From assembly GCA_964626845.1 (NCBI GenBank), contig CAZVGR010000005.1, positions 36,557 through 100,556 of the forward strand: DNA of 64,000 nt. The letters are read 5' to 3'. The notes under the pieces are model-generated. The model did no database searches and had not been told where the DNA came from. It was given only the letters and a program-made list of their open reading frames with translations. Positions 29,050 to 63,658 of this stretch are shown here, in pieces; the first letter of the stretch is position 1; each line of letters begins with the position of its first letter. The stretch is from an uncultured Anaerolinea sp. Lineage in GTDB: Bacteria > Chloroflexota > Anaerolineae > JAAEKA01. A program made the position numbers and the translations under genes.

Positions 29050-29112
29050 GTTACTACTCAGGTGCCGGGCACTTGCACCCCAAGTGCCCGGCACCTGGGC
29101 CTGAGTAGTAAC
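29050..29112. mobile_element. MITE-like element family 1 (63 bp, minimal copy: TIRs GTTACTACTCAGGTGCCGGGCACTTG / CAAGTGCCCGGCACCTG-GGC-CTGAGTAGTAAC) with perfect 8-bp TSD GTTACGCG
   Basis: Direct repeats GTTACGCG at 29042-29049 and 29113-29120. Lies in the divergent promoter region between the surface-giant gene and the phosphoesterase gene. Confidence 0.8.
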
Positions 29113-29340
29113 GTTACGCGTAGATATTCAAGCTACTGACCAGCATCCAACAGCCTGCTGGCTGTCCAGTTTTGCGAGCAAGTCCTGGCAATTCGCTTGA
29201 AAGATACATCACAAGTATAAAGACTCCCAGGCGTCAAAGTCAATAGGACATTAGTACCATCTACTGTATCGAGGACTGGCGCTATTTCATCATGAAATTC
29301 CGGAATCGAGCCAGATGCCCATACGCTGGGCGGCGATCCC

Positions 29341-29369
29341 TTGCGCAATGACCGCAACAGGGCTATAAT
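29341..29369 (+). promoter_or_regulatory. Sigma-70-like promoter TTGCGC-N17-TATAAT upstream of metallophosphoesterase gene
   Basis: TTGCGC 29341-29346, 17-nt spacer, TATAAT 29364-29369. ~80 nt upstream of ATG 29451. Local AT-rich context. Confidence 0.5.
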
Positions 29370-29450
29370 GGCCGCAGTTGCACAGCAGACCATGACAGGA
29401 GGAGCCAGAGCGCTTGAGGCGGCAGCGCCTGACGTTCCGGAGAACTCTCA

Positions 29451-30446
29451 ATGACCAACTACAATGCCACAGTGGCCAGACGCCTGGCCGAAGTCCATGC
29501 CAACGCCACGGTCGACGATGGTCGCGAGCTGGCCGATCTGCGCCTGATCATCTTTTCTGACTTGCACAAAGGCCAGCGCGATGGCGCCGACGACTTCCAG
29601 CCCTGCGAGCAGACCTACCTGGCCGCGCTGGCCCAGTACTGGCAGCAGGGCTTCGAGCTGTTTCTACTGGGAGACGTGGAGGAGCTGTGGGAGAACTGGC
29701 CCGGTCCTGTGATTCGCGAGTACAGTGCGGTGCTCAACCAGGAGTTGCTCTTTGCTGAGAGTCGCACCCCCGCCCGCTATCTGCGCTTTGTGGGCAACCA
29801 CGATGACCTGTGGTACGACCGCGATCAGGTGCAGCGCCATCTGGACCCCTTTCTGGCCGGCCAGCCAGTGATCGAGGGCCTGCGTTTGACGGTACACGAA
29901 CAAGGGCAAGAACTGGGCGAGCTGCTCTTCCTGCACGGGCACCAGGGAACCCCCGACTCGGATCGCTTCGCTCGTTTATCTGCGCTTCTTGTCCGCTACA
30001 TCTGGCGCCCCATCCAGCGCGCCTTCAACGTCCGCCTCAATACCCCCAGCGCCAACTTTGAGCTGCGCCAGAAGCATGAGCTGGCCATGTACAGCTACGC
30101 CGCCAGCCAGCCGCGCCTGGTGCTCGTCGCCGGCCACACCCACCATCCCGTCTGGGAGGGCCTGGGCTTCGAGCAGGCCATGCAACAGATGGCGGTGCGA
30201 GGTCTGACGCCCCAGGTCGACCCGGCCTGGCTGAACGAGCAGATGGCCGAGGCTGTGGCGCTGCCCGGCCGCAAGCCCAGCTACTTTAACACCGGCTGCT
30301 GCGCCTACGTCGATGGCTCCATCACCGGCATCGAGATCGCCGACGGCGAGATTCGCCTGGTGCGCTGGATCGCAGCCGCCCAGCCCACACGCACAGTGCT
30401 CTTCAGCGCGGCGCTGCGCGATGTCTTGGCTGCAGTGGCCGGATAA
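29451..30446 (+). CDS. Calcineurin-like metallophosphoesterase
   Basis: Motifs IFSDLHKG, GDVEELW, GNHDD, HGHQG, GHTHH in canonical order. Confidence 0.8.
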   Translation: MTNYNATVARRLAEVHANATVDDGRELADLRLIIFSDLHKGQRDGADDFQPCEQTYLAALAQYWQQGFELFLLGDVEELWENWPGPVIREYSAVLNQELLFAESRTPARYLRFVGNHDDLWYDRDQVQRHLDPFLAGQPVIEGLRLTVHEQGQELGELLFLHGHQGTPDSDRFARLSALLVRYIWRPIQRAFNVRLNTPSANFELRQKHELAMYSYAASQPRLVLVAGHTHHPVWEGLGFEQAMQQMAVRGLTPQVDPAWLNEQMAEAVALPGRKPSYFNTGCCAYVDGSITGIEIADGEIRLVRWIAAAQPTRTVLFSAALRDVLAAVAG

Positions 30447-30448
30447 TC

Positions 30449-30590
30449 GTAACTGCTCAGCCGGCCGGTCAGAAACCGGGTTTTTCTCGTTGGGCAATGA
30501 TTTCTGAGTTTGCAAACGCATTGCTCGGGGCTATGATAGCCGCCTCCGCAGCAAAAACCCGGTTTCTCTAAGCCCAGCCTGAGCAGTAAC
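30449..30590. mobile_element. MITE-like element, family 2 (142 bp) with perfect 8-bp TSD GGATAATC, which includes the phosphoesterase stop codon
   Basis: Near-identical to the copy at 1390-1530 (a few substitutions and one extra T). TSD at 30441-30448 and 30591-30598. Confidence 0.8.
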
Positions 30591-30617
30591 GGATAATCAA
30601 CGACAACGCGCGCAGCT

Positions 30618-30646
30618 TTGCGCTTTTGCCCGCTGTAACTTATAAT
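30618..30646 (+). promoter_or_regulatory. Sigma-70-like promoter TTGCGC-N17-TATAAT upstream of Ala/Gly-rich protein gene
   Basis: TTGCGC 30618-30623, 17-nt spacer, TATAAT 30641-30646. Same hexamers as the promoter at 29341. Confidence 0.45.
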
Positions 30647-30760
30647 GCAGTGCGTCATAAACGTAACAAACCCTGGCGCTGAAGCGCGGCCAGGCATCCC
30701 GAATTCGTAACCAAACCAGGCTATTCTCCCCAGCATAGCCATTTCCTCGGAGACAATCCC

Positions 30761-31438
30761 ATGAGCGAACAAGAGACCTCCGCCCCCCAAGGCGTAATGG
30801 CCGAGCGACTGCGCAAGGCCAAGGAACTGACCGACATGACCGTGCAGGGCGCACGCTCCACGGTGGACAGCGTGGCGGGCATGGCTGCCAGCGAGGCCAG
30901 CGCAACGGCCGAAGCCGCGTCCTCTGCTACCCAGGGCCTGGCCGAGACCCTGGGCGGCGCCACCACCCACGCCATGCAGGGTGTGGCCCACACCACCGGC
31001 GCGGTGGTGGGTGGAGCCAAGGGCACAGCCGGCGGCCTGATCATGGCAGCCCAGATCATGGGCGGCGCTACATTCGATGCCGCCAAGAGCCTGGCCGGCA
31101 GCACAGCCAAAGCGGCCGGCGGCCTGGCTGAGGGCTTCGCCGTGGCGCTGGACGACCAGGCCCAGGGCGCCGAGCAGGTTAAACAGACCGCCAAAGCCTT
31201 CGCCCAGCAAGCCTTCGACGCCACGGCCGGAGTCGGCTTTGGCGCGTTGGGCGGCGCTACCACCGCAACGGGCGCAGTGCTGGGCGGCGTCAAGGGCGCG
31301 GCCGCTGGCACGCTGGAAGGCGCCAAGGAGATCGTCGATGCCGGCGCTGACGTGGCTTACTCGGTGACCAAGGAAGCCAGCAAGGGCGGCACGGAAGTGG
31401 CCCGTCGCGTGCTGCGCCGGCCTGATGACGAGGCGTAA
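30761..31438 (+). CDS. Hypothetical Ala/Gly/Thr-rich low-complexity protein (possible amphipathic-helix stress/coat protein)
   Basis: 225 aa, RBS GGAG 8 nt upstream. Repetitive A/G/T composition with periodic charged residues. The overlapping minus ORF 30305-31459 reads through a MITE and is judged a shadow. Confidence 0.5.
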   Translation: MSEQETSAPQGVMAERLRKAKELTDMTVQGARSTVDSVAGMAASEASATAEAASSATQGLAETLGGATTHAMQGVAHTTGAVVGGAKGTAGGLIMAAQIMGGATFDAAKSLAGSTAKAAGGLAEGFAVALDDQAQGAEQVKQTAKAFAQQAFDATAGVGFGALGGATTATGAVLGGVKGAAAGTLEGAKEIVDAGADVAYSVTKEASKGGTEVARRVLRRPDDEA

Positions 31439-31464
31439 CCCAGGTCCGCTAGACTGCACAGATC

Positions 31465-31579
31465 GTTACTTACTACTCAGCCATAGGTGCCGGGCACTGG
31501 AATCTGCGCCTGCAACGAAGTCTGTGGAGCCGATCTCAGCCGCCCATGAGCTGCAAGTGCCCGGCACCTGAGTAATAAC
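31465..31579. mobile_element. MITE-like element family 1 (115 bp), degenerate TSD (CACAGATC / CACAAAAC, 6/8)
   Basis: Ends GTTACTTACTACTCAG...CCATAGGTGCCGGGCAC and CAAGTGCCCGGCACCTGAGTAATAAC. Left arm carries a 6-nt insertion (CCATAG), as in the 57119 copy. Confidence 0.7.
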
Positions 31580-31590
31580 CACAAAACAAC

Positions 31591-31626
31591 AAAAGAACCC
31601 TCGCCGCGGCGAGGGTTCTTTTGTTG
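31591..31626. terminator. Bidirectional Rho-independent terminator (GAACCCTCGCC-GC-GGCGAGGGTTC followed by TTTTGTTG, preceded by AAAA)
   Basis: 11-bp perfect GC-rich stem, 2-nt loop, T-tract. Sits between convergent genes 30761-31438 (+) and 31631-31999 (-). Confidence 0.75.
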
Positions 31627-31630
31627 TCCG

Positions 31631-31999
31631 TCATTCCTCGGTGTTCATCAAGCCTTGGCCTGCATCCAACACATGAAAGACGTGACTGGCGACCGGTTGC
31701 CCGCCCAGGATGTGTTCGTCCACGATGCGGTCGATCAACGCCTCGTCCACATGATGGTACCAAACGCCGTCAGGGTAGACCACGAGGAGCGGCCCGCGCA
31801 TGCAGACGCCGACGCAGGGCGTCAGGCTGACCTTGACCCGTTGCGGGTTCAGGTAGTCGCCCAGCGCGCCGAGGCGCCTGCTCAGGTAAAGATCCAGGCG
31901 GCGGGCCTTCTGCTCAGGGTCACAGTGGTCGCTGTACTCGCCGGTGCAGATGAAGATGTGGCGGCTGTAGGGCGCCAGGTAGGGGGCGTCGTCGTCCAT
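31631..31999 (-). CDS. Thioredoxin-like [2Fe-2S] ferredoxin
   Basis: Start MDDDAPY at 31999 (the track ORF is extended upstream). Cys ligand pattern [11 protein letters not shown]...[11 protein letters not shown] typical of thioredoxin-like 2Fe-2S ferredoxins (NuoE-like). Confidence 0.7.
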
Positions 32000-32142
32000 G
32001 GCGTTGTCTCGGGGTGGTTGTGGGCTTAGGCGGGCTCGGTCAGGAGACCGGCCCGAGCAATGCGAAGTGCGGGCTCGGTCGGCCCCATCCGGGGTGCTTC
32101 GCAAAGACCGGCCCGAGCGACCAGGAGACCCGGTCTGAGCAG

Positions 32143-32982
32143 TCAGGCATGACGGGCCAGGTGGCGCGCCACCGACTCGTCCATGCTCAGCTCGCCGGCC
32201 AGCACGGGCGCCTCGTAGTCCAGCGCCCACTGGAAAAGCTGCGAGCGGGACAGGCGCAGCTCTTGCAGCATCAGGCGGGCCAGCGCGCCGCCGTCGCTCA
32301 GAAAGCCTGTATCCAGGTAGTCCTGCTCGGTCTGCTGGCGGTCATAGGCCACGCGCACGATCTCGGCCTGCCAGCCGCCGCGCCGCCAGGTGAGCCGGCC
32401 GTAGCTGGCCCGCGGGTCGCCGTCGAAGGGCATGCCCACCGCGCCCACGTTGACCACCAGCGTGCCGTCCACGCGGCGCACCAGCGGCACGTGGGTGTGG
32501 CCCACCACCAGCAGCGGCGCATGGGGCCGGCCGACCTGCACGCGCAGCACGTGATCAGGGGTTTCGGGGAAGACGCCGTCGCGTGTGCCGCGCATCGAGG
32601 CATGGACGACGCGCGCCTCGCTGCCGTCGGGCGCCAGAAGGGTCTGGCTGAAGGGCAATGCGTACAGCGTGGCCATCTGGCCGTTGAGCCGTTGGTAGGT
32701 CCAGTAGGAGCTCTGGAAGATCTCGAAGCGCGGGCCGCTGCGCGCAGCTTCCGGCTGGGCCTGATGCAGCACATATTCTTCGTGGTTGCCCAGCAGCAGC
32801 CGCCAGCCGGCCGCGCGCTGCCGCTCCTCGACCAAACGCAGGCACTCGTCTGGCCGCGGCCCGCGGTTGACGGTATCGCCAGCCACCACGACGGCGTCTG
32901 GCCGCCACGCGTCGATGCTCTCCAACACAGCGAGCAGCGCGGGCAAGTTAGCATGGATGTCGGCAAGAACGGCAAGTTTCAT
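32143..32982 (-). CDS. Metallophosphoesterase (ApaH/YfcE-like phosphoesterase family)
   Basis: [21 protein letters not shown] motifs. Confidence 0.8.
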
Positions 32983-33244
32983 GGTTGGCGCTGAATCAAA
33001 GAGACGAGCGGCCTGGCAGGGCCGCTCGCATGATCAAACGGTTAGGGCGAGTATAGCGCGTTGGGGAGAGATGTCAAGCCTCAGGGACTGTTTGAAAAGC
33101 CCCGGACCGGTGGTTGGAAACCGACCGGCTGACAGCACAAAGGCCCCTCAGGGCCTGGAATCCAGCGGCTGAGGCCGCTTCGTACTTTCAGCCAGATGGT
33201 TTCAACCTCTGATTCCGATGCTGCCGGGCTTTTCAAACAGCTTC

Positions 33245-33760
33245 TTAGGGCTGGCGCACCTCGGCCTCGACCGTCAACGTGGCGCCGCTGGCAAATTGGA
33301 GCGTCAGCGGGAACTTGTCGCCCACGTTCAGGTCGCGGGTCAGGCCGATCAGCATGACGTGCAGGCCGCCGGGCCGCAGCTCGACCTGGCCGCCGGCCGG
33401 CACCTCGATGCCGCCCTGGACCTCGGCCATGCGCATCACGTCCCCTTCCATCTTTGTCTCGTGGATCTCGATGGCGTTGGACACATCCGCCTGGGCAGCC
33501 ACCAGCCGGTCGGCCGCGGCGCTGCCGTTGGCCAGCACCATGTAGACCGCGCTGTTGGCGCCGCCGTGCTGCATCTGCTGGCTGTCGCCCTCCATCGGCA
33601 TGCTGCCCATCATCTTGGCCGGCCTGGCCCAGACGTTCTGGGCGGTGACGCCCTGGCTGGCCGCCGGCGCCGGCGGCGGCTGGGTGCAGGCTGTGGCCGC
33701 CAGCAACAGGACCATGATTGCTGCCAGCAGCAAGTAGACGCGTGCGTTGCGATACTGCAT
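33245..33760 (-). CDS. Periplasmic copper chaperone PCu(A)C-like lipoprotein (DUF461)
   Basis: Lipobox LLAATAC. Conserved H-x-M-rich copper site IEIHETKMEGDVMRMAE. Met/His-rich insert GSMPMEGDSQQMQHGG. Confidence 0.7.
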   Translation of the reverse strand: MQYRNARVYLLLAAIMVLLLAATACTQPPPAPAASQGVTAQNVWARPAKMMGSMPMEGDSQQMQHGGANSAVYMVLANGSAAADRLVAAQADVSNAIEIHETKMEGDVMRMAEVQGGIEVPAGGQVELRPGGLHVMLIGLTRDLNVGDKFPLTLQFASGATLTVEAEVRQP

Positions 33761-33772
33761 AGTGGTTCTCCT

Positions 33773-34318
33773 CTAGAAGTGCATGGATGTGCGGACAAAG
33801 GCCAGCGCCCCGTCCAAATCGACTATCTCACCGCCGAAACCAGCCTGAAAGCGCTGGGCGTCAGCCAGAGCCTCGAAGGCCAGCACGGTGGGCGTGCAAC
33901 AGATGGCAATCTCCGGCGCAGCCAGGTAGGCGGCGCTGCGTCCGTTGACGGTCCGGCCAAAGAGAAAATCGGTCACCAGGATGCTGGTAATCGCCTCGGC
34001 GCTGCGGGCCAGCGCCATCAAGCCGCAGTGGGGACAGCAAGCCAGGCGCTGGCTGCCATCGCTCCAGTGCAGGACGACCTGAGTGCGCGGGTTGAGCGAG
34101 CCATAACAGGCCAGGCAGCGCTCGCCGGCCGGCGCTGGCTCTGCGGGCACGGCGCCGCCGCGCACCTTGCGCAGCCGGCCGGCCTGGGCCAGTTGGTCCA
34201 GATCGCGGTGGATGGTCATGGTCGACACACCTAGCGTGTGAGCCAGATCGTCGATGCCAACCGCTCCCTGGTCGGCCAAGCGATCCAGAATATGGCGTTG
34301 ACGGTGGTCAGGGTTCAT
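33773..34318 (-). CDS. DeoR-type HTH transcriptional regulator fused to a C-terminal TRASH-like metal-binding domain (C-x2-C-x22-C-x3-C)
   Basis: Likely start ATG 34318 (MNPDHRQRHILDRLADQG...). The track's GTG at 34348 adds 10 aa. HTH GIDDLAHTLGVSTMTIHRDLDQL. TRASH-like CLACYGSLNPRTQVVLHWSDGSQRLACCPHCG. Confidence 0.65.
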   Translation of the reverse strand: MNPDHRQRHILDRLADQGAVGIDDLAHTLGVSTMTIHRDLDQLAQAGRLRKVRGGAVPAEPAPAGERCLACYGSLNPRTQVVLHWSDGSQRLACCPHCGLMALARSAEAITSILVTDFLFGRTVNGRSAAYLAAPEIAICCTPTVLAFEALADAQRFQAGFGGEIVDLDGALAFVRTSMHF

Positions 34319-34360
34319 GGGTTGTGCGATTCCATGTGATATCAACACAGATTTCGCAAC

Positions 34361-35281: not shown

Positions 35282-35299
35282 GGCAGGCGACCTCTGTGA

Positions 35300-35411
35300 G
35301 TTACTCTACTCAGGTGCCGGGCACTTGCAGCTCATGTGCGGCTTGAATAGGTTCGGCAGACATCGCTGCAAACGTAGATTCAAGTGCCCGGCACCATAGC
35401 TGAGTAGCAAC
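35300..35411. mobile_element. MITE-like element family 1 (112 bp) with perfect 8-bp TSD CTCTGTGA, inserted in the LysR/cytochrome-operon divergent promoter region
   Basis: Ends GTTACTCTACTCAGGTGCCGGGCACTTG ... CAAGTGCCCGGCACCATAGCTGAGTAGCAAC. TSD at 35292-35299 and 35412-35419. Confidence 0.8.
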
Positions 35412-35440
35412 CTCTGTGATAAAATTCCCGAATAGAAGTA

Positions 35441-35457
35441 TATCAGAGACTCTGATA
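35441..35457. promoter_or_regulatory. Perfect 17-bp palindrome TATCAGAG-A-CTCTGATA (contains a T-N11-A LysR-type box) in AT-rich promoter region
   Basis: Read directly. Lies ~90 bp upstream of the operon start (35550), between the divergent LysR gene and the operon. Confidence 0.45.
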
Positions 35458-35549
35458 ATAAAACATGATCTATATCATACGCTTTTATCAAAAATCCTGG
35501 TATGATTGGGCCGTTGCAGACTATACTCAAGGTTTCTCAGGAGGAGACT

Positions 35550-37556
35550 ATGTCTCGTTTGCGTGTTCTACCAATCCTATCGATCCTGCTGATCCTGGCG
35601 CTGCTGGTTGCAGGCTGCGGCCAGCAAGCCACGCCAGAGCCGACGCCCGTCCCGCCGACAGCTACCCCCGTGCCGCCGACGGCCACGCCGGTCCCGCCCA
35701 CGGCCACCCCTGTGCCGCCCACGGCTACGCCGGTGCCGCCAACACCCACGCCTGTACCGCCCACGCCAACCCCCGAACCGGAACCAGAGTCGGGCGTGTT
35801 GGATGATGCCATGGCCTTCTTTGGCGCTGGCGTGAAGTTGATCTCGGCTGACGCCCTCTACGAGAACCTCAACGACGGCGACGCCAGCAACGATCCCTTC
35901 ATCATCTCATTGCGCTCGGCCGAACATGACGCCGTAGGCCAGATCCCAGGCGCCTACAACATCAGCGTCAAGGAGCTGATGTCACCCGAGGTGCTGGCCA
36001 CCCTGCCCACCGACCGGCAGATCGTCGTCTACTGCTACACCGGCCAGAACTCAGCCCAGGCCGTGACAGCGCTGAACATGGCCGGCTTCGACGCAGCCAG
36101 CCTCACCTATGGCATGAGCGGCTGGACCACCGATCCGGCGGTCTATGTCAACCGCTTCAACGCAGAAACGACCCCGCGCCAGTTCGCAACCTTCACCGAC
36201 ATGCCGGAATGGAGCGACGAGACCTTCGCGCTGGCCACGCCATTGGCCGAGACCAGCGCCGAGGCCGCCTACGCCTACCTGAGCGCCAACGGCGCCAAGA
36301 TGATCGCGGCCGATGCGGTGTACGAGAACCTCAACGACGGCGACGCCAGCAACGACCCCTTCATCATCTCGGTGCGGGCCCAGGAAGACTACGCCAAGGG
36401 ACACCTGCCTGGCGCGCTGTGGACGACGCCCAAGGACCTGTTCACCCCTGAGATGCTGGCCAAGCTGCCCACCGACCGCCAGATCCTGGTCTACTGCTAC
36501 ACCGGCCAGAACTCCGGCTTCGTGGTGGCGGGTCTGAACATGCTGGGCTACGATGCCATCAGCCTGACCCACGGCATGAGCGGCTGGACCGACGATCCGG
36601 ATGTCTTCGTTCGCCGCTTCAACGCCGAGACGACGCCGCGCAACTTCCCCACCGAGGCTGGCGCCGTGCGCTCGCTGGCTGCCGGCTCGGACGGCGACCT
36701 GGCCACGGCCGCAGATGCTTACTTCAGCGGCGGCCCGAAGACTATCACCGCCGACGCGCTGTTCGAGATCCTCAACGACGGCGACGACAGCAACGACCCG
36801 ACGATCATCTCGGTGCGCAAGGCTGAGGATTTCGCTAAGGGCCACCTCCCTGGCGCGATCAACCTGACCCACGCCCAGCTCTTCACGCCCGATGTGCTGG
36901 CGACGATCCCGCAGGACAAACCGGTGGTGGTCTACTGCTACACCGGCCAGACGGCCAGCCAGGCAGTCTCGGTGCTGAACATGCTGGGCTACGACGCCCG
37001 CAACCTGGTCTTCGGCATGAGCGGCTGGACGACAGACCCTGAGGTCTACGTGACCCGCTTCGACCCCACCAAGGCCAACGACTTCCGAACGACCACGGAA
37101 GGCTTTGAGGCTGAGGGCGAGTACGACCTGCCCGAGCCGCTGGCGGCCACCGTGCTGGATGCAGCAGCGGTCTACTTCGGTGCAGGGCTGAAGACAATCC
37201 AGGCGCCGGCGTTGTACGAAAATCTGAACGACGGCGACGAGAGCAACGATCCCTACATCATCTCGGTGCGTTCGGCAGAGCACTACGCACTGGGCCATTT
37301 GCCAGGCGCAGTCTGGTACGACGCCAAGGCGCTGTTCACGCCAGACAGCCTGAGCACCCTGCCCAACGACCGCCCCATTGTGGTCTACTGCTATACCGGC
37401 CAGACCGCCAGCCAGGTGACTTCGGTGCTCAATCTGTTGGGCTACGATGCCAGCAACCTGGTGTTTGGTATGGGCAACTGGACCAACGATCCTGCGGTCT
37501 ACGTCAATCGCTTCAACCCGGAGACGACCCCGCGCGACTTTCCGGTTGAGAAATAG
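35550..37556 (+). CDS. Lipoprotein with four tandem rhodanese (sulfurtransferase) domains, each retaining the catalytic Cys (CYTGQ)
   Basis: Start MSRLRVLPILSILLILALLVAGC with strong RBS AGGAGG (the track ORF starts 48 nt earlier). PT-rich linker (TATPVPP x4). Four repeats ending ...VVYCYTGQNSAQ / LVYCYTGQNSGF / VVYCYTGQTASQ / VVYCYTGQTASQ. Confidence 0.85.
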   Translation: MSRLRVLPILSILLILALLVAGCGQQATPEPTPVPPTATPVPPTATPVPPTATPVPPTATPVPPTPTPVPPTPTPEPEPESGVLDDAMAFFGAGVKLISADALYENLNDGDASNDPFIISLRSAEHDAVGQIPGAYNISVKELMSPEVLATLPTDRQIVVYCYTGQNSAQAVTALNMAGFDAASLTYGMSGWTTDPAVYVNRFNAETTPRQFATFTDMPEWSDETFALATPLAETSAEAAYAYLSANGAKMIAADAVYENLNDGDASNDPFIISVRAQEDYAKGHLPGALWTTPKDLFTPEMLAKLPTDRQILVYCYTGQNSGFVVAGLNMLGYDAISLTHGMSGWTDDPDVFVRRFNAETTPRNFPTEAGAVRSLAAGSDGDLATAADAYFSGGPKTITADALFEILNDGDDSNDPTIISVRKAEDFAKGHLPGAINLTHAQLFTPDVLATIPQDKPVVVYCYTGQTASQAVSVLNMLGYDARNLVFGMSGWTTDPEVYVTRFDPTKANDFRTTTEGFEAEGEYDLPEPLAATVLDAAAVYFGAGLKTIQAPALYENLNDGDESNDPYIISVRSAEHYALGHLPGAVWYDAKALFTPDSLSTLPNDRPIVVYCYTGQTASQVTSVLNLLGYDASNLVFGMGNWTNDPAVYVNRFNPETTPRDFPVEK

Positions 37557-45795: not shown

Positions 45796-45899
45796 CGTAA
45801 ACAAATTAACTGCGTATCGGTGCCCGGCACTTTGGCGACGATTCGCACATGATCAGAGGCTCGTGTCAAGTGCCGGGCACCTCAACAACTTTGTTTACG
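45796..45899. mobile_element. MITE-like element, variant subfamily (outer TIR CGTAAACAAA, inner palindromic core GGTGCCCGGCAC...GTGCCGGGCACC)
   Basis: Outer 10-bp inverted repeat CGTAAACAAA / TTTGTTTACG. Core and adjacent segments homologous to the copy at 10066-10131 in opposite orientation. No TSD seen. Confidence 0.5.
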
Positions 45900-49439: not shown

Positions 49440-52034
49440 TCAAGACAGGTCGCCGTTGACAGTCGACGGATCTGGGGTAAACAGGCTGGGCTGGGCGGCG
49501 CCAGACTGGGCCTTCTCCGGCCAGACGGCGCCGATATGCTCGTAAGCCAGCCGCGTGGCGGCGCGGCCGCGCGGCGTGCGGTCCAGGAAGCCCAGTTGCA
49601 GCAGATACGGCTCGACCACGTCCATGATGGTGCCCGAGTCCTCGCTCAGCGCCGCAGCGATGGTCTCCAGCCCCACCGGCCCGCCGTCGAACTTCTCCAC
49701 CAGCAGGCGCAGCACCTTGCGGTCCAGGTCGTCCAGGCCCAGCGCGTCGATCTCCATCAGGCGCAGGGCCTGGTCGGCTGTCTCGGCCGTGATCACGCCG
49801 TCGCCGCGCACCTGGACGTAGTCCCGCACGCGGCGCAGCAGGCGCAGGGCCACACGCGGCGTGCCGCGGGCCCGGCGGGCGATCTCGCTGGCGCCGTCGT
49901 CGCTGATGGTCACCTGCAAGAGCGCGGCCGCGCGGCGCACGATCTCCTCCAGCGCGGCCTGCTCGTAGAAGTCGAAGCGGTAAATGGCGCCGAAGCGCGA
50001 GCGCAGCGGCGCAGTCAGCAGGGCCAGCCGCGTCGTCGCGCCGATCACCGTGAAGCGGGGCAGCTTGAGGCGGATCGAGCGCGCGCTGGGGCCTTTGCCG
50101 ATGACGATATCCAGCGCGAAGTCCTCCATGGCCGGGTAGAGGATCTCCTCCACGGCCCGGCCCAGGCGGTGGACCTCGTCGATGAAGAGGATGTCGCCCT
50201 TGTGCAGGTTAGTCAGGATCGCCGCCAGATCGCCGGCCCGCTCGATAGCCGGCCCGGCCGTCGTCTTCATGGCTACGCCCATCTCGTTGGCCAGGACGTG
50301 GGCTAGCGTCGTGTTGTGATTGAAGAATCCGTTGGCTACAAATGAATGGCTACCAGGAACGACGAAATCATAGGTCGCTGCGAAGCCTTCCTCAATCTGC
50401 TTCACGCGATCCCAATAAATAGCCGGATCTGTCAACGAACATAGCGTTTGGTACTCCGGAGTTTCCTGAATCCAGGGCGGCAGAAGTTCGAGGTAGCGTT
50501 GAATCTGTTGTCGCGTTGGAGTTCGATCGTTGCGACTCGCATGGCTAAACGCCTTATGAGTCGAATGTGGGTGAGGCCCTGATAGATGAAGCAAGGAGCG
50601 TAGACTAGAGTTCGAACATGGAACGAGTTCACTCCGACTCCAGCCGCCTGTTCGCATCCTTAGGCCCTCTGCTCGGTCCCGCTTACGGCCTAGACGAAAA
50701 CTGACAATATCGTGATAGCGCTCGGCGTCGATTCCACCAACGAAGAGTGTCCAGTAGTCTACGGCTTTGATTCTCTTCCGGTTACGGCTAGCAATAATGC
50801 CAAGGTTGGCTAGAAGCAACTGCACTTGTTGGGCGAGTTGTTTTGAGCGCGTACCATATTCTACATAACCTTCTGGCCAGACATTTCCATCAGCATCAAA
50901 CAAGCCTTGCAAGAATCCGATAGCTGTCGAGCGCTCTCCTGATAACACGCTGGCAGGCACCACCTTGTTGGACGCGAGTTCAGCCTTCATCCCTAAGGCA
51001 AGCATGAGATGCCCGATTGTCTGACTGAAACGCAACTGCGGCGCCCTGTCGCCGTACTGTCGTATTTCAGGAGCTTGGCCGAATAGTCTCTGTGCAATCC
51101 GCTGCAATTCAACCTGTATCTCAGGCTCGCTGCAGGTGATAACAAAGGCGGGGGAATTCTGTCCGCGTTCGAAGTGACCATCTCCAACTAGCATTCCCAT
51201 CACGTAAGCCAAGTCCGCGTCAAGATCGATTACGCGAGCTCTGTTGTCGACAAGTTCAGTGGTAAAGCGCCACGGCGAAGCTTCCACGTCAACTGATCGC
51301 CCATCAGTTAGCGAGAGACCCAATCGTTTGGCTGCTACTTCCGGCGTTGGATTCTTGCTGGCTGCACCCATGTAAGCGTGTCTCAGTTCAATGGCTGCGG
51401 GAGGTCTTCCCAGACCATTGACCAAATCTTCGTAGATGTGGCGGATCCTGCAATCCGTCCAAGCGCGTCGCATGCTAGATGCGTCTGGCTGCCAAGATGC
51501 AGACTGCGGTTGACCCCACTGGTTCATGCCGCGACCGATAGCCACATAATCTTCAGTGGAAATCTCTTCAAGGCGTTTCCATTGGGGACCGCTTGGCGTG
51601 GCAACCAACAAGGCATGGTTTGGCGTGCCTTCGATTTCGAAGCCCGCTTTGGTGATGATGCGACGTGTCGTTCCGTGACCACTAGCATAGACGTATGAAG
51701 TCGTTTCGATGCCGTTGAGACCATAGACCAAGGTGCGACAAGGCACGTAAGTATCTGGTGCGAGGGTGTCTGGAATGAACGAATCGAAGGACTTCCATCC
51801 CTGCTCGGTCAGAATGAGCGAGGTGGCAGTGATGCACTTGCCCAGTCCGGGCGGACCATACAAGAGCACATGATCCAGCGACTCGCTGCGTTGCTGGGCG
51901 GCCTGTAAGAGGATCTCCAGGTTGTCGCGCAGGCGGTCCTGGCCGATCATCTCGGCCAGGCGCTTGGGGCGCAGGGCGGCGTCCAGCGCGGCTTCTTCGG
52001 GGCGTTTGCGGGCGGAAACGGTGCGGTCGTCCAT
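49440..52034 (-). CDS. ruvB: Holliday-junction branch-migration ATPase RuvB interrupted by a ~508-aa intein in the Walker-A P-loop
   Basis: N-extein ...[11 protein letters not shown]-extein [13 protein letters not shown]...FIDEVHRL...[14 protein letters not shown] (RuvB sensor/winged-helix regions). 864 aa total vs ~340 for typical RuvB. Confidence 0.9.
50313..51836 (-). other. Intein with LAGLIDADG homing-endonuclease domain inserted between GLGK and TT of the RuvB P-loop
   Basis: Cys1 ([13 protein letters not shown]), C-terminal ...VANGFFNHN followed by +1 Thr. LAGLIDADG motifs [14 protein letters not shown] and [14 protein letters not shown]. Visibly lower GC (~50%) than the flanking extein DNA. 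Confidence 0.8.
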
Positions 52035-54400: not shown

Positions 54401-54477
<77 letters not shown>

Positions 54478-56802: not shown

Positions 56803-56848
56803 TAAAAAAAGCAGCGGGCCACCTCCCAGTGGTTGCGCTGCTTTTTTG
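56803..56848. terminator. Bidirectional Rho-independent terminator (AAAAAAAGCAGCGGGCCACC...GGTTGCGCTGCTTTTTTG)
   Basis: A-tract, GC-rich hairpin, T-tract. Between convergent genes 56194-56778 (+) and 56873-57076 (-). Confidence 0.65.
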
Positions 56849-56872
56849 TTGCGGTTCGGCGAAGTCTGGCGC

Positions 56873-57076: not shown

Positions 57077-57118
57077 GCAACACTCCTGAGATGGTGGATA
57101 ATCGATTGAATCTGGCTG

Positions 57119-57229
57119 CGTTACTACTCAGGCATAGGCGCCGGGCACTTGAATCTGCGCCTGCAAGGATGTCTGCCGAGCTTATTCACGCTATGCAGGG
57201 GCTGCAAGTGCCCGGCACCTGAGTTGTAA
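57119..57229. mobile_element. MITE-like element family 1 (111 bp) with perfect 8-bp TSD CTGGCTGC
   Basis: Ends GTTACTACTCAGGCATAGGCGCCGGGCACTTG ... CAAGTGCCCGGCACCTGAGTTGTAAC. TSD at 57111-57118 and 57230-57237. Confidence 0.8.
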
Positions 57230-57428
57230 CCTGGCTGCGCGAATTGTAGCACACATGCAGGGCAGCTACAAGATCAGCTTTGCCATCTAAGCCTGGCTGG
57301 GCTATAATCCCCTCTGTGCGCTGGCCGTCCAGGCCGGCGTTTCCTATGTCTTTTGGCTCTCGGCGCCAGCCCTAGCGCTGGGCCGGTCTGCGCGCAGACA
57401 GCGCGTCCAGCCCCTTTCAGGAGGATAC

Positions 57429-58160: not shown

Positions 58161-58204
58161 TCCGACGCTGACGTTGCCGCAACGTCCCTGAGCGAGATTG
58201 CTTC

Positions 58205-59869
58205 GTGCAGCGCTCGATTCTCTCCCCCCGCCTCAGCCCCTTGAGCGTGCGCATTAGCCGGCCGCGCACGGCCAGTTTGTCGCGCGCCGCTGTGGGCGCG
58301 GCCCTGGCTGTGGGCATTGTGCTGCGCGGCGCGCTGTTGCATCAGCCTGGCCTGCATCCCGACGAGGCCCTTTATGCCAGTTGGGCGCTGCGCATCGCCG
58401 ATGGCAGCGATCCTGCCCTGCTGGCAGTCTACGTGGACAAGCCGCCGCTGGCGCTTTACCTGCTGGCCGCCCTCTTCAGGCTGGCCGGTTTCGACGGACA
58501 AGCGCTGTTGCATCCTGGGCAGTTGATCCTGGCCGGCCGGCTGGCTGCGCTGATGGCCAGCGCCGTCAGCCTGGCCCTGCTGTGGCTGATCGCCCGCCGC
58601 GTCTATGGAGCGCGCGTCGCCCTGGCCGCGCTGACCCTGCTGGCCCTGTCGCCCTTGGCCGTCAAGCTGGCGCCGACCCTGTTCACCGACCCCTGGCTGA
58701 CGCTGTGGCTCCTGGCGGGGCTATTAGCTGCGTTGGGACAGCGCGCCTGGCTGGCCGGCATTGCTTGCGGCCTGGCCTACGCCACCAAACAGCAAGGGGT
58801 GCTCTTCTTGCCGTTGGTGCTGGCAGTCCTGCTGCTGAGCCAACCCCAGTCAGCGCCGCGCGGCACATCTGAGGCCCTCTCCCGCCGCCGCCTGGCCTGG
58901 CGCTGGCTGAACGGCTTTGCCATCGTTGCGGTCGCCGTGCTGTGGTGGGATAGCCTGCGCTGGCAGTGGATGCCCAGCTATTGGGATCGCAGCGCCCAAA
59001 CCTACGGCGGCCTGGCCCTCGCCCTGGACGCCGGCCTGACCCAACGGCTGGCCCAGTGGGGCGAGCTGTTGAGCTACGGCTTTGGCTGGCCATTCTGGCT
59101 GGCCGCGGCGGGGCTGGTCTTCTGGGCTGCAGCCAGCGTTGTTACGCGCCGCGCCACAACGCGCCAAAGCCAGCAACCGGCTTTTAGTCGTGCTGAACAG
59201 GCCTGGCGGCCCCTGGCAGCGGACAGCGTAGCCCGCTGGTTCGACCGGCTGTTGTTGGCCTACGTCCTCAGCTATCTGCTTCTGCACATCGTCACCAATC
59301 TTGCCCCGTGGGACCGGTACTTGCTGCCGCTGGCGCCGTTGCTGGCCCTGCTGCTGGCGCGCGCCCTGTTCTGGGCTTGGGATGTGATCCCCCAGCCTGC
59401 GGGCCGTGTAGGCTGGGGCCGGGCCGTGGCAGGGGTTGGCTTGGCGGCCGGCCTGCTCTATGCCGGTTACCTGGCCGGCTTTGCCCGCCTGCCCCTGAGC
59501 GATGGCGGCGCCTACGACGGCGTGCAGCAGATTGCAGCCCATGTGCGCAGCACCGAAAAATCTGACGCCATTCTCTACCATCACTGGCTGGGCTGGCATT
59601 ACAACTTCTACCTGTACGGCGCGCCGGTGGAGCTGCGCTGGTGGCAGGATCCGGCCGATCTGACCCGCAAAGCCGCCGCCGCACCGGGTCAACGCCAGTT
59701 GATTGCCTTCCCGGCCGGTCGAAGCGAGGACAGCGTGCGGGCTGCGCTGGCTGGGGCCGGGCTGGCTCTCAGCCCCGTTCTGCAAGCAGCCGATGCCCAC
59801 GGCGCGCCCTCGGTGATGTTGTACAGCATCGAACCGCTTGTGGCTGGAGCGCCGGACTATGGTCCCTGA
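58205..59869 (+). CDS. Polytopic membrane glycosyltransferase, GT39/ArnT/PMT-like
   Basis: ~12 TM. First extracytoplasmic loop contains the DE motif (HPDEALYASWA) typical of GT-C mannosyl/arabinosyl transferases. Confidence 0.7.
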   Translation: MQRSILSPRLSPLSVRISRPRTASLSRAAVGAALAVGIVLRGALLHQPGLHPDEALYASWALRIADGSDPALLAVYVDKPPLALYLLAALFRLAGFDGQALLHPGQLILAGRLAALMASAVSLALLWLIARRVYGARVALAALTLLALSPLAVKLAPTLFTDPWLTLWLLAGLLAALGQRAWLAGIACGLAYATKQQGVLFLPLVLAVLLLSQPQSAPRGTSEALSRRRLAWRWLNGFAIVAVAVLWWDSLRWQWMPSYWDRSAQTYGGLALALDAGLTQRLAQWGELLSYGFGWPFWLAAAGLVFWAAASVVTRRATTRQSQQPAFSRAEQAWRPLAADSVARWFDRLLLAYVLSYLLLHIVTNLAPWDRYLLPLAPLLALLLARALFWAWDVIPQPAGRVGWGRAVAGVGLAAGLLYAGYLAGFARLPLSDGGAYDGVQQIAAHVRSTEKSDAILYHHWLGWHYNFYLYGAPVELRWWQDPADLTRKAAAAPGQRQLIAFPAGRSEDSVRAALAGAGLALSPVLQAADAHGAPSVMLYSIEPLVAGAPDYGP

Positions 59870-62852
59870 GCAGGGCGGACGCCATCGGGAGGCCTTAGGC
59901 TGGCTGTCAGCAGCGCTGGCGCTGGCCGCGGGCGTGCTGCTGGTCTATGCGCCGCTGCTGTTGACCAACCGTGTGCTGGCCACCGGCGACGCCTTCACCT
60001 ACTTCACCCCGTATCGTGACTATGCCAACGCAGCCCTCAGCGCCGGCCGGCTGCCGCTGTGGAACCCCTATCTCTTCTTGGGCGTGCCCTTCCTGGCCAA
60101 CCCCCAGACCGCCATCTTCTACCCGCTGCACTGGCCCTTGATTGCGCTGCCAGCCGCCCAGAGCCTGTTGGCAGCGTTAGCCCTGCACCTCTGGCTGACC
60201 GGCATGGGGGCGGTGGTTTATGGGCGGCAGGTGGCGCGGCTGGGCTGGCTGGCAGCAGTGACCATCGGCCTGATCTGGAGCTTGAGCGGCTATGTGGGGG
60301 CGCGCGCCGGCCAGATCAACCAGGTCAGCGTCATCGCCTGGCTGCCCTGGCTGCTGACCCTGCTGGAGCTCAGCGCTCCCCGCTGGCGTTTGACCGCTGA
60401 CGGCCTGCCCACTGACCAGATGGGGCTTCGTTTCCGCTGGCTGGCCTTCGCGGCGTTGGCGTTGGTCATTGCGCTGCAACTGCTGGCCGGCCACACCCAG
60501 TCTTCCTTTATTAACCTGACCGGCCTGCTGCTGGCGGCGGTCTGGCCGGGGCTGGCGGCGCTGTTGCTGCTCCTGTGGACGGCCGTGCGGCGGCAACGCT
60601 CCCGCCTGGAATGGGCAGCTTTGCACGCCGCTGCTGGCCGGGTGTTGGTCGTGCTGAGCGCCGTGGCGCTCGGCTTTGCGCTGTCGGCGGTACAGCTTCT
60701 GCCAACGCTGGAACTGTCGGAGCTGTCGATCCGCAGCGGCGGTCTGTCCTGGCGCGAGGCGGTCTCGTTTTCCTTGCAACCGCGCGGCCTGCTGTTGACG
60801 TTGCTGCCCAGCTACGGCGAAAATCTGGCCGATCACTTTGCCACGCCGGCTTATGGCGAGTATGTGGCCTATGTCGGCGTGGTCGGGCTGCTCTTAGCGC
60901 TGCTGGCCCTGGCGCGTTGGCGCAACAGCGCCGGCCGCCGGCCGCTGAGCTCGCCCTGGGGACTGGCTGCAGCCCTGGCCCTGGCAGGCTTGGCCCTGGC
61001 GCTGGGCGCGTTCAACCCCCTCTACCTGATCCTGGTCAAGATTGTGCCCGGTTTCGACCTGTTCCGCGCCCCGGCGCGCTGGATGGCGCTCTACACCTTC
61101 GGCGTCAGCGTGCTGGCTGGCTACGGCGTGGCTGCGTTGGCGCAGGTGAGGCTGGCACAGTGGCGCTGGCCCGGCCTGCCTCAGGGCCGGCGCCGCTGGC
61201 TGGTTGCAGCCTTGACATTGACAGCCGCAGCCCTGCTGGCCGTACAACACTGGCCGGGCTGGACGACGGCGGCGCTGTGGCTGGCAGTGGGCGTTGCGGC
61301 AGTGGGCGTTGCAGCCTGGCAGACCCGACAGCCGCGGGCTGTGCTGCTGCTGGCCCCCTTGCTGCTGATCGAGCTGGCAGCCGCCAGCCTGGCGCTGGAG
61401 CACCGGCGCCCCACAGCGCCTGAGGCCATCACCAGCCTGCGCACCGCTCCCGCTCACCTGCTGGCCGCCGCCCAACAGGCCGAGCGCGAAGGCCGCATCC
61501 CTGGTCGTTTCCTCAGCATCTCTGGCATCACCTACGACCCTGGCGACCTGGCCGAGATCGAGCAGATCTTCAGCGGCCGCCTGCCCGAACAGGCCATCTA
61601 TGACCTGGTGGTGGCCAGCAAGCTGCAAGAGATCGTGGCGCCCAACCTGCCGCTGCTCTGGCGTTTGCCAGCCGTGGACGGCTACGACGGCGGCGTGCTG
61701 CCGCTGCGGCGTTATGTGGACTTGCAGACGCTGTTCATTCCGGCTGGCCAATTGGCCGAAGACGGCCGGCTGCGCGAGCAGCTCCAGACCGTGCCGCCCA
61801 GCCGGCTGCTGCGCCTGTTGGGCGTCGAACATGTGCTCACCGACAAGGGCTTCGATGTGTGGTGGGATGATGTGTACTACGATCTGGAACTGAGCACGCG
61901 GCTCCAGCCGGGTGAGGCTGTGACCGTGCTGGAGGCTGATCGGCTGGAGGCTACCGGGCTGGGGCTGTGGAGCTATCTGGAAGGCGGCGCGGCCTTGCCC
62001 GACGGCGCGCCTGTGGCTGAGGTGTGGGTGGAGGGGAGGGACGACGGACGAGCCTTGACGCTGCGCGCCGGCCAGGACACGGCCGAAGGGCTATGGCGCA
62101 CAGACACGGCCCACGCCCAGCCTGCTGCGCGCCGGCCCTGGCCGCGCGAGCAGGCCGGCTGGGACTACCTGGCCCGCGCCGATTGGTCTGAGCCATTGCT
62201 GCCGCTGCGCATCGTCGTGCGCAACGTGGCAGCGGAGGGCGACCTGATCCTGCGCGGCATCAGCCTGCTGGACGAACGCACAGGAACTCATGCCGCCTTG
62301 ACGATGCCAGCCGACGGCCAGTTTCGCCGCGTCCATTCGGGCGATGTGAAGATCTATCAAAACGTCCAGGCGTTGCCGCGGGCCTACCTGGCCGGCCAGG
62401 TCCTGGCAGCCGACGATGATGCAGCCGCACTGGCTGTGCTGGCCGGCCCTGAGTTCGAGCCTGCCAGGCAGGTGGTGGTGTTGGCCGAAGAGTTGGCTGC
62501 GGCGGGGCTGCTGGCGCTGGCGGCGCGGCTTGACAACCCCGCCGTCACAGGCGCTGTCCAGGTGACCGAATACCAGCCGGAAGAGGTTGTGCTGGACGTC
62601 AGGCTGGAGGCGCCTGGTGTATTGGTGTTGGCTGATACCTGGTATCCTGGTTGGCGGGCGACGGTGGACGGCGCGCCCGCGACGCTGCTGCGCGCCAACT
62701 ATCTGTTTCGGGCGCTGCTGCTGCCAGCCGGCCAGCATCGCGTCCAGTTCGAGTACCGGCCGGCTTCGCTCAGCCGCGGCGCTGGCATCAGCCTGGCTGC
62801 GGCGGTGCTGCTGGCGCTCATCGGCGCTGTGGGCGTGCGCCGGCGAGCGTGA
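59838..62852 (+). CDS. YfhO-family membrane protein (GT-C-like; large polytopic N-terminal domain + extracytoplasmic C-terminal domain)
   Basis: 1004 aa. N-terminus VLATGDAFTYFTPYRDYANAALSAGRLPLWNPYLFLGVPFLANPQTAIFYP typical of YfhO. Overlaps the upstream gene by 11-32 nt (alternative start 59859). Confidence 0.75.
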   Translation: MWLERRTMVPEQGGRHREALGWLSAALALAAGVLLVYAPLLLTNRVLATGDAFTYFTPYRDYANAALSAGRLPLWNPYLFLGVPFLANPQTAIFYPLHWPLIALPAAQSLLAALALHLWLTGMGAVVYGRQVARLGWLAAVTIGLIWSLSGYVGARAGQINQVSVIAWLPWLLTLLELSAPRWRLTADGLPTDQMGLRFRWLAFAALALVIALQLLAGHTQSSFINLTGLLLAAVWPGLAALLLLLWTAVRRQRSRLEWAALHAAAGRVLVVLSAVALGFALSAVQLLPTLELSELSIRSGGLSWREAVSFSLQPRGLLLTLLPSYGENLADHFATPAYGEYVAYVGVVGLLLALLALARWRNSAGRRPLSSPWGLAAALALAGLALALGAFNPLYLILVKIVPGFDLFRAPARWMALYTFGVSVLAGYGVAALAQVRLAQWRWPGLPQGRRRWLVAALTLTAAALLAVQHWPGWTTAALWLAVGVAAVGVAAWQTRQPRAVLLLAPLLLIELAAASLALEHRRPTAPEAITSLRTAPAHLLAAAQQAEREGRIPGRFLSISGITYDPGDLAEIEQIFSGRLPEQAIYDLVVASKLQEIVAPNLPLLWRLPAVDGYDGGVLPLRRYVDLQTLFIPAGQLAEDGRLREQLQTVPPSRLLRLLGVEHVLTDKGFDVWWDDVYYDLELSTRLQPGEAVTVLEADRLEATGLGLWSYLEGGAALPDGAPVAEVWVEGRDDGRALTLRAGQDTAEGLWRTDTAHAQPAARRPWPREQAGWDYLARADWSEPLLPLRIVVRNVAAEGDLILRGISLLDERTGTHAALTMPADGQFRRVHSGDVKIYQNVQALPRAYLAGQVLAADDDAAALAVLAGPEFEPARQVVVLAEELAAAGLLALAARLDNPAVTGAVQVTEYQPEEVVLDVRLEAPGVLVLADTWYPGWRATVDGAPATLLRANYLFRALLLPAGQHRVQFEYRPASLSRGAGISLAAAVLLALIGAVGVRRRA

Positions 62853-62868
62853 CCTGTTGAGGTGAAGT

Positions 62869-63429
62869 GTGAACGTGATCAATCGTATCGTCACCATCCT
62901 GGTGGTGATCCTGTTGTGGGCGCTGATTGTTCTGGTCGCGATTGTACCGGAGCAGGCCCTGTTCTGGGGGCGCCAGGCGATCGACTGGATCGAGATCAGT
63001 CTGTTTCAGTTGGCAGCCATGCAGCCGGCCTGGCTCTATCCCCTCCTGCGCGGGGCAACGGTGATCGTGACGACGCTGCTTGCTCTGGCATGGCTGATGC
63101 AGGAACTGCGCCGCAAACAGACGCCCGTGGTCAAAATGCGCCTGGCGTCGGGCGGCGAGGCCGCCGTAACCGCCGACTCTATCAGCCGGCGGCTGGCCTG
63201 GCATATCGATCAACTGGCCGATGTGAACAGCGTGAGGCCGGTGGTGCGCACACGCGGCGCGGCCGTGGATGTTGATTTGAACCTGCAAACGGCGCCAGAT
63301 GTGGACGTGCCAATGAAGACGGAGGAAGTGGTGGCGGTGGCGCGTGAAGTCATTGAGACGCAGATGGGCCTGCAGCTCAACAAGGTCAAGGTCAACATCG
63401 ATCATGCGCCCTTTAAGCCTGCGCTGTGA
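62869..63429 (+). CDS. Membrane-anchored Asp23/Gls24-family protein (AmaP-like)
   Basis: GTG start. N-terminal TM IVTILVVILLWALIVLVAIV. C-terminal RGAAVDVDLNLQTAPDVDVPMKTEEVVAVAREVIETQMGLQLNKVKVNI resembles the Asp23 fold. Confidence 0.45.
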   Translation: MNVINRIVTILVVILLWALIVLVAIVPEQALFWGRQAIDWIEISLFQLAAMQPAWLYPLLRGATVIVTTLLALAWLMQELRRKQTPVVKMRLASGGEAAVTADSISRRLAWHIDQLADVNSVRPVVRTRGAAVDVDLNLQTAPDVDVPMKTEEVVAVAREVIETQMGLQLNKVKVNIDHAPFKPAL

Positions 63430-63546
63430 GAAGCAGGTCAACTGCTGGCAGCGGCGCAGGCTGCATCACTGTCAATCACAGCCAAAACGCGCATGCGCTG
63501 GATGGTAACGCAGCGAGCTGGCGGTGCATCTTAACGGTGTTGCATG

Positions 63547-63658
63547 ATTACTACTCAGGTCCAGGTGCCGGGCACTTGCATTTGCGCCTACTAACGAAGT
63601 CTATGAAGCCGATTTTAGCCGTCAATGAACTGCAAGTGCCCGGCACCTGAGTAGCTAC
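63547..63658. mobile_element. MITE-like element family 1 (112 bp) with perfect 8-bp TSD GTTGCATG
   Basis: Ends ATTACTACTCAGGTCCAGGTGCCGGGCACTTG ... CAAGTGCCCGGCACCTGAGTAGCTAC. TSD at 63539-63546 and 63659-63666. Confidence 0.8.

Follow-up and report, generated by a model that had tools for sequence, protein, structure and literature searches.

The 64-kb stretch of DNA analysed in this work, hereafter called the window, contains five copies of a short palindromic element, here named family 1. [quoted passage not shown] The limits and flanks of the copies were taken by direct reading of the window sequence. All five were found where they had been noted, four with exactly the limits given and the fourth, reported at 57119-57229, displaced by one base.

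29050-29112, + strand: family-1 MITE c1, 63 bp, an internal-deletion form with its ends in the order A..B; TSD GTTACGCG at 29042-29049 and 29113-29120
31465-31579, - strand: family-1 MITE c2, 115 bp, B..A on the + strand; nhmmer E-value 5e-32
35300-35411, + strand: family-1 MITE c3, 112 bp, A..B; TSD CTCTGTGA at 35292-35299 and 35412-35419
57120-57230, - strand: family-1 MITE c4, 111 bp, B..A; TSD CTGGCTGC at 57112-57119 and 57231-57238
63547-63658, - strand: family-1 MITE c5, 112 bp, B..A; TSD GTTGCATG at 63539-63546 and 63659-63666

Terminal inverted repeats (TIRs) are present at both ends of the elements (GTTACTACTCAG ... CTGAGTAGTAAC, with some point changes), and their outer 12-13 nt read GT[A/T]ACTACTCAG[G/C]. 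Shared termini had been recognised earlier, but the single consensus then proposed merged two end types that are not equivalent. At end A the outer terminus is joined directly to an inner core (GTTACTACTCAG-GTGCCGGGCACTTGCAG); at end B the two are separated by a 5-nt spacer, which is GCATA, CCATA, CTATG, GCCCA or GTCCA and usually (G/C)CATA. Copies c2, c4 and c5 are oriented one way, c1 and c3 the opposite way. Some termini are mutated (ATTAC/GTAGC in c5, GTTGC in c3), and the left terminus of c2 contains a 4-nt duplication (GTTACTTACTACTCAG).

Perfect 8-bp TSDs, unrelated in sequence, flank four of the five copies; the chance of one is 1/65,536 per site, and the total is far beyond chance. 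The flanks of c2 (CACAGATC and CACAAAAC) agree at 6 of 8 positions and form no perfect TSD. Re-reading of the flanks thus gave the same counts as before. The core GTGCCSGGCAC occurs 28 times in the window, against 4.6 expected, and the outer 13-mer 15 times, against 6.6 expected; no shuffle equalled either number. When the window was searched by nhmmer with the family profile, the five copies were recovered (c1 by both of its ends) together with a weak match at 10066-10142, and no others. The copies, five in 35 kb, are only 73-80% identical to each other. No gene was identified inside the copies of family 1 (63-115 bp) or of a sister family, family 2 (141-142 bp), some mechanically called open reading frames (ORFs) overlapping them. 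Family 1 therefore combines the features by which prokaryotic MITEs are recognised: small size, lack of coding capacity, TIRs, variable TSDs of fixed length, dispersed copies and empty sites.

Empty sites and copies in other Chloroflexota

The proteins closest to the methionyl-tRNA formyltransferase (Fmt) encoded in the window carry the names Anaerolineae bacterium (83%) and Caldilineales bacterium (73%), which places the host in the class Anaerolineae of the Chloroflexota. Two relatives, L128 (GCA_014155705.1; Fmt 82%) and L129 (an ENA scaffold; Fmt 80%), show synteny with the window over a region that extends from cytochrome to rhodanese/CBS genes. A search for empty sites in related strains had been proposed, and both c4 and c5 proved to be missing from these two genomes, the comparison being between related species and not between strains. 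In both, c4 is absent from the divergent region upstream of the gene for a family 2 glycosyltransferase (GT2), and the alignment picks up again exactly behind the second copy of the TSD (GCGAATTGTAGCACAC vs GCAAATTGTAGCACAC). Likewise, c5 is absent ahead of a small rhodanese gene, where the window has 259 nt and the relatives about 137 nt; the difference in length corresponds to 112 + 8 nt. Neither core nor terminus motifs were found in the 18-21 kb of syntenic DNA of L128 or L129.

No strain-level empty site was seen in the Logan short-read contigs, all of which were identical to the window and ended in repeats. Those 100% identical to the window end inside MITE copies, including c3, or break 28 nt into the family-2 copy at 30449-30590, as would be expected for dispersed repeats.

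The exact end-A 20-mer was scanned against one genome per species. It was found at 18 loci, 17 of them within five Chloroflexota metagenome-assembled genomes (MAGs), namely Anaerolineales H71_756 (11 loci), Anaerolineae MFD10570, Anaerolineae AnMBR.bin316, Caldilineales ABC2.10 and Caldilineales DTUCFX11. A full-length family-1 copy, with termini GTAACTACTCAG ... CTGAGTAGTTAC, is present in 13 of those loci, the remainder being truncated or decayed. Perfect 8-bp TSDs were found in seven of the 13 (L001, L006, L012, L013, L014, L016 and L018). Flanking 8-mers that are mostly unduplicated had been named as an outcome that would speak against mobility; in the data read, the duplication is perfect for 4/5 copies in the window and 7/13 in the other MAGs. 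The copies in H71_756 are up to 98% identical. In one of them (L013, 268-378) the left terminus is missing its first four bases, GTAA, and the perfect TSD, CTTCGCAT, abuts the truncated end.

Comparison of both MITE families with plasmids by BLAST gave no match. Literature searches with the terminal and core sequences returned unrelated primer-type matches only, and in the literature searched no paper was found that ties a MITE to ISBst12/IS66 or describes MITEs of Chloroflexota. Families 1 and 2 are previously undescribed MITE families of a known kind, tied to the ISBst12 group of IS66.

Termini shared with ISBst12-type insertion sequences

Four transposase families had been proposed as possible parents, IS66 among them, and it is to ISs of the ISBst12 group of IS66 that the termini correspond. 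ISDge4 of Deinococcus geothermalis, a member of this group with a single 449-aa transposase, has the TIRs GTGACTACTCAGCA and GTAACTGCTCAGCA and generates an 8-bp direct repeat, and its transposition has been shown experimentally (PMC12898284). These published TIRs equal the MITE termini. On the D. geothermalis plasmid pDGEO01, the TIR motif of ISDge4 was not found in the first 50 kb, nor is an IS66-family transposase annotated in the first 100 kb. ISGka4, from the Geobacillus plasmid pHTA426 and annotated as an IS66-like transposase, has the ends GTATCTATTCAGCCC and GTAACTATTCAGCCC, with the terminus pattern GTA(T/A)CTATTCAGCCC, and the TSD GACGAGTT.

Plasmid relatives were collected by tblastn with the ISGka4 transposase, and five of them were read. 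The IS of Leptolyngbya boryana pLBX is 1575 bp long, with GTAACTACTCAGG at both ends and the TSD AGAGTATC. Those of Rhodococcus (termini GTAACTGGTCACGT, TSD TCGTTCGA) and Bradyrhizobium (termini GTAACTGCCCAGGT, TSD TGCATATC) are likewise flanked by a TSD, and that of Clostridium, with the ends GTTACTGCTCAGCC and GTTACTACTCACGC and GTTAC at both, has a TSD matching at 7/8 positions. In Deinococcus sp. QL22 the left end is GTGACTGCTCAG, the right end being not clearly placed.

A metagenome scan with a transposase alignment added 80 further loci; 87 IS loci were examined in all. In 73 of these, paired termini 1.4-2.1 kb apart bracket the transposase gene, far beyond chance. The logo of 72 pairs of termini reads G-T-A-A-C-T-A/g-C/t-T/c-C-A-G-G/C, with no conservation past approximately position 14, and leans towards the 12-mer of this motif with which the termini were located (at most 3 mismatches per end). 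Eleven metagenomic ISs have perfect 8-bp TSDs, many of the metagenome contigs having chimeric flanks. DDE_Tnp_IS66, zf-IS66 and DUF6444 were detected by a Pfam scan in all five of the transposases submitted to it. The MITE termini agree at 12-13 of 13 nt with this logo and with the published ISDge4 TIRs, and the TSD length of 8 bp is the same in the MITEs, ISDge4, ISGka4, the plasmid ISs and the 11 metagenomic ISs. CATA stands at positions 14-17 in 11/73 left (transposase-proximal) IS ends and in 0/73 right ends; by this feature the B end of the MITEs (..CTCAG[G/C]CATAGG) is like the left end of an IS, and the A end like the right.

Such ISs also occur in Anaerolineae. One relative of the L088 transposase, 90% identical to it, bears the name "IS66 family transposase [Anaerolineae bacterium]". 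The earlier proposal to look for a full-length IS with the same TIRs was answered in another Anaerolineae MAG but not in the window: the DNA of this relative is an IS of 1582 bp (L132, 5915-7496), which lies in a 63% GC context with the TSD TGCGCAAG. Its left end, GTAACTACTCAGGCATAGC (in a longer reading GTAACTACTCAGGCATAGCACG), matches the B end of c4 (GTTACTACTCAGGCATAGG) at 17/18 nt, and its right end, GTAACTACTCAGGCTG (longer reading GTAACTACTCAGGCTGTTGG), matches the A end of the MITEs at 13/13 nt. The ends of this IS recur unchanged at L133-L141, in at least nine flanking contexts across sewage and other metagenomes, which suggests a currently active element.

The ISBst12-group ISs (ISBst12, ISDge4 and ISGka4) thus share with the MITEs the termini GT(A/G/T)ACT(A/G)(C/T)TCAG(C/G), an 8-bp TSD, a short recognised repeat of about 13-14 nt, and left and right ends that differ as the B and A ends do. 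They differ in being 1.5-1.7 kb long with one transposase gene, whereas the MITEs are non-coding, 63-142 bp long and equipped with an inner palindrome. Canonical IS66 elements (tnpA-tnpB-tnpC) have an 8-bp direct repeat and ends starting with GTAA (PMC11946415). They share the transposase superfamily, the repeat length and the GTAA start with the probable ISBst12-type parents but have three ORFs and GTAAGCG ends extending over 20-30 bp; the MITE termini follow the ISBst12-group motif.

Among the ISs examined, those at L098, L105 and L106 carry at the right end a sequence resembling the MITE core (CCGGGCACTT); this candidate was rejected, the similarity being within chance. The only organism-named match of this clade is to Acidobacteriota (Pyrinomonadaceae, 62% identity).

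A second family and probable decayed relatives

A search with the terminus pattern revealed two copies of a second MITE family in the window. Two variant elements with the core of family 1 had been noted earlier.

1390-1530, + strand: family-2 MITE, 141 bp; TSD GAAAAATG at 1382-1389 and 1531-1538
30449-30590, + strand: family-2 MITE, 142 bp; TSD GGATAATC at 30441-30448 and 30591-30598
10066-10142, strand not assigned: decayed relative of family 1 with paired core; weak nhmmer match (E-value 8e-4), fold z -8.6, no TSD
45796-45899, strand not assigned: decayed relative of the same sub-type as the 10066 element; fold z -6.2, no TSD

The two family-2 copies (repeat D18) are 94% identical to each other. 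Their outer termini, GTAACTGCTCAGCC ... CCTGAGCAGTAAC, are those of family 1; the interior is unrelated. Both have perfect 8-bp TSDs, which brings the number in the window to six. The copy at 30449-30590 begins 3 nt past the stop codon of the gene at 29451-30446. The Anaerolineales MAG H71_756 has, at a distance of 97 bp from one of its family-1 copies, a 334-bp element (L004, 3800-4133) with the termini GTAACTGCTCAGCC ... GCCTGAGCAGTTAC. This element lacks a clean TSD; it may represent a third MITE family with these termini.

The variants at 10066-10142 and 45796-45899 had been described as sharing the core but lacking both the outer termini and TSDs. This holds for the core and the TSDs; remnants of the outer termini are present (..CTATGCGCAGTTAC; TTAACTGC..), and the variants therefore look like decayed relatives. 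The remnant in the 10066-10142 element is of the B type (CTATGCGCAGTTAC), and its central core base is swapped on both arms. An internal sequence of the 45796-45899 element, GCGACGATTCGCAC, is found in the 10066 element in the opposite orientation. No counterpart of the 45796-45899 element was found in the syntenic DNA of L128 or L129.

Gene context, alternatives and meaning

The family-1 copies are intergenic, as had been stated, and their distances to the neighbouring start codons were measured, the domains of the neighbouring genes being assigned from Pfam. c1 sits between a promoter-like site (29243-29214) and the gene for a 1825-aa DUF11 surface protein, 68 nt upstream of the earliest possible start of that gene. 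c3 lies 18 nt upstream of the start codon of a LysR gene (35281, minus strand), the likely ribosome-binding site of which overlaps the c3 TSD, and 90 nt upstream of a rhodanese gene (35502). c4 precedes a conserved 67-aa gene by 43 nt and is also upstream of the promoter-like site of GT2 (57280-57308), and c5 is found 30 nt upstream of the start codon at 63689, inside a string of genes on the same strand. c2 is located just upstream of a terminator-like hairpin (31585-31628), which in turn comes after the stop codon of a gene on the - strand (31631-32230). These positions indicate that most copies are probably transcribed.

Several features adjoin these sites. The hairpin at 31585-31628 has a 20-bp stem with A and T runs on either side and resembles a bidirectional intrinsic terminator. 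The gene at 35502-37556 (+ strand), divergent from the LysR gene across c3, encodes a 684-aa protein with four tandem rhodanese domains (DNA repeats D4 and D6, period ~450 bp). Next to the insertion point of c4, in the divergent region that separates GT2 from the 67-aa gene, a palindromic stretch at 57240-57268 (TTGTAGCACAC..N..GCTACAA) is conserved in the window, L128 and L129; it could be an operator or promoter.

Elsewhere in the window, 4311-23230 (- strand) holds five tandem paralogous ORFs of 744-1362 aa, which have in common DNA blocks 64-89% identical (repeat families D1-D16). They resemble a response-regulator-type ORF of another MAG and are putative multi-domain sensor kinases. At 49440-52034 (- strand) the RuvB gene, split by an intein that contains a homing-endonuclease domain of the LAGLIDADG type, forms an ORF of 864 aa; the RuvB orthologues of two syntenic relatives, of 348 and 358 aa, have no intein.

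Taken together, the data make it very probable that the family-1 elements are non-coding MITEs moved in trans by a single-ORF DDE transposase of the ISBst12 group of the IS66 family. Such a transposase would recognise only the outermost 12-13 nt (GT[A/T]ACT[A/G]CTCAG[G/C]) at each end and would insert the element through a staggered 8-bp cut of the target, gap repair then yielding the 8-bp direct repeat. The asymmetric MITE ends would mirror those of the autonomous IS, B being the left end and A the right. With such a small sequence requirement, interiors as unrelated as those of family 1, family 2 and the 334-bp element could be carried by the same termini, of which about 13 nt are shared. 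Since the window lacks an IS66 transposase, mobilisation would occur in trans, and we infer an active transposase elsewhere in this genome.

Some observations weigh against this interpretation. Neither the window nor the 18 other MITE loci contain an IS66-family transposase detectable by tblastn with the ISGka4 transposase, in agreement with the earlier statement that the window has no cognate transposase gene; an all-against-all ORF comparison of these 18 loci and the window found no shared transposase either. Six of the 13 full-length loci in other genomes (L004, L005, L007, L008, L009 and L015) have no clean TSD. The window copies start with GTTAC and most ISs with GTAAC, GTTAC being found at both ends of four autonomous ISs (the Clostridium IS, L047, L055 and L103). 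None of the ISs examined resembles the MITE beyond the 13-18 terminal nt, so that it cannot be demonstrated that the MITE arose by deletion from any of the sampled ISs; on this sequence comparison, its interior and inner palindrome do not derive from one. Finally, with their mutated termini some of the window copies may no longer be mobile.

In one alternative, possible but less likely, the elements are true ISBst12-type MITEs that have become immobile here, through loss of the parent or decay of the termini, and persist as hairpins of untranslated regions (UTRs). The low identity of the window copies (73-80%), the mutated termini of c2, c3 and c5, the decayed TSD of c2 and the lack of a transposase in the window are consistent with such fossils, as is the occurrence of the same insertions in all metagenome contigs of the strain, among which no polymorphism was seen. 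However, four perfect TSDs out of five would be unlikely if the 20-27% divergence had arisen after insertion. The divergence therefore probably predates insertion, which would mean that several sub-lineages were active fairly recently. The 98% identity reached in H71_756 and the empty sites in relatives with 80-82% Fmt identity also argue against a fossil family.

It is improbable that the elements serve mainly as a structured regulatory motif (RNA or DNA) under selection, their mobility being incidental. All copies can fold as long hairpins, at -44 to -56 kcal/mol and with z between -3.3 and -8.9 (for c1, -45.3 kcal/mol and z -8.9), four of them lie 18-68 nt upstream of start codons, and the inner palindrome GGTGCCSGGCACTTG is 98% conserved at the B end, the end unused in the search, compared with values of 94% in the outer terminus and 77% in the interior. 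However, RNAalifold gave near-zero covariation (-1.03 kcal/mol), the invariant paired outer columns being uninformative, and the copies occur in both orientations relative to their neighbouring genes. Apart from one 9/12 match in c5, they contain no sigma-70-like promoter or intrinsic terminator. Membership of a known structured-RNA family had been named as grounds for abandoning mobility; an Rfam scan of the window returned only the tRNA at 54401-54474 at the gathering threshold, and no match to the copies.

None of the 73 IS loci whose termini were recognised showed the inner palindrome itself. Across five or more Chloroflexota genomes no other part of the element is as well conserved as this palindrome. 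In the two variants a compensated G/C swap at its centre affects both arms, and the inverted symmetry is kept. We consider it rather doubtful that it is a functional module acquired by the MITE. It could be a site for a host or transposase-accessory protein or, at four of the five copies, a 5'-UTR hairpin; an extra transposase contact, a host-protein site and a contribution to hairpin stability may all be considered. A sigma-54 reading of GGCAC-TTGC was rejected by inspection, the spacing being wrong.

Mobilisation by another DDE family with 8-bp TSDs (IS256, ISL3, IS1595, IS6 or ISAs1), with a coincidental likeness to ISBst12, is very unlikely. An 8-bp TSD alone fits several families, and no transposase of any kind was found beside a copy, but the termini agree at 12-13 of 13 nt with the motif conserved in 73 autonomous elements of the ISBst12 type, and at 17 of 18 nt with the left end of the Anaerolineae IS. 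The other 8-bp IS families start with GG, Ga/g or CAGGG and are not known to start with GTAAC.

To our knowledge, transposition of the IS200/IS605 (HUH) type does not duplicate the target, and we know of no TSD or DDE-type TIR in REPINs, the paired form of repetitive extragenic palindromes (REPs). The REPINs share with family 1 two inverted GC-rich palindromes with a spacer and a high local density, and family 1 differs in having a TSD and DDE-type TIRs. By definition, a REP has GTAG or CGTC as a tag directly 5' of its palindrome and goes together with a gene for a REP-associated tyrosine transposase (RAYT), and GTAG-tagged REPs have been reported in Chloroflexi (PMC3733652). That the copies are REP/REPIN palindromes spread by a RAYT (HUH/Y1) transposase, or host elements like bacterial interspersed mosaic elements (BIMEs), is scarcely credible: a GC-rich palindrome (GGTGCCSGGCAC) is present in each arm, always in inverted pairs, GTAG occurs within the terminus (GAGTAGTTAC), and two variants have no clean outer termini, but this GTAG stands outside the palindrome, on its 3' side and 2 nt away instead of directly 5', the variants keep terminus remnants and so read as decayed MITEs, the copies are surrounded by variable 8-bp TSDs, which REPs should lack, and the termini equal those of DDE ISs, so that the earlier exclusion of a REP/BIME-type repeat stands.

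As ISBst12-type MITEs, the elements resemble Correia/NEMIS, RUP, ERIC, Nezha and MITEPsy1 in their small size, lack of coding capacity, TIRs, TSDs, intergenic sites close to genes and the potential of their transcripts to form long hairpins, and differ from them in the parent IS family, the TIR sequence and the TSD length. Correia elements duplicate TA, and ERIC and RUP are related to other families.

The elements described here provide a concrete case of MITEs with an origin in the ISBst12 group, which is poorly studied. They are of use for annotation and strain typing and change no concept. If the inner palindrome were an acquired module, the family would amount to a regulatory cassette dispersed in Anaerolineae and not to purely selfish DNA. 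Insertion of hairpins immediately upstream of the LysR gene, the giant surface-protein gene, the small ORF divergent from the glycosyltransferase operon and the rhodanese gene could alter their expression. Mobile-element activity is documented in uncultured Anaerolineae, in which these repeats break short-read assemblies. The findings also suggest that about 13 terminal nt are enough for mobilisation, which would explain the existence of several unrelated MITE families with the same ends.

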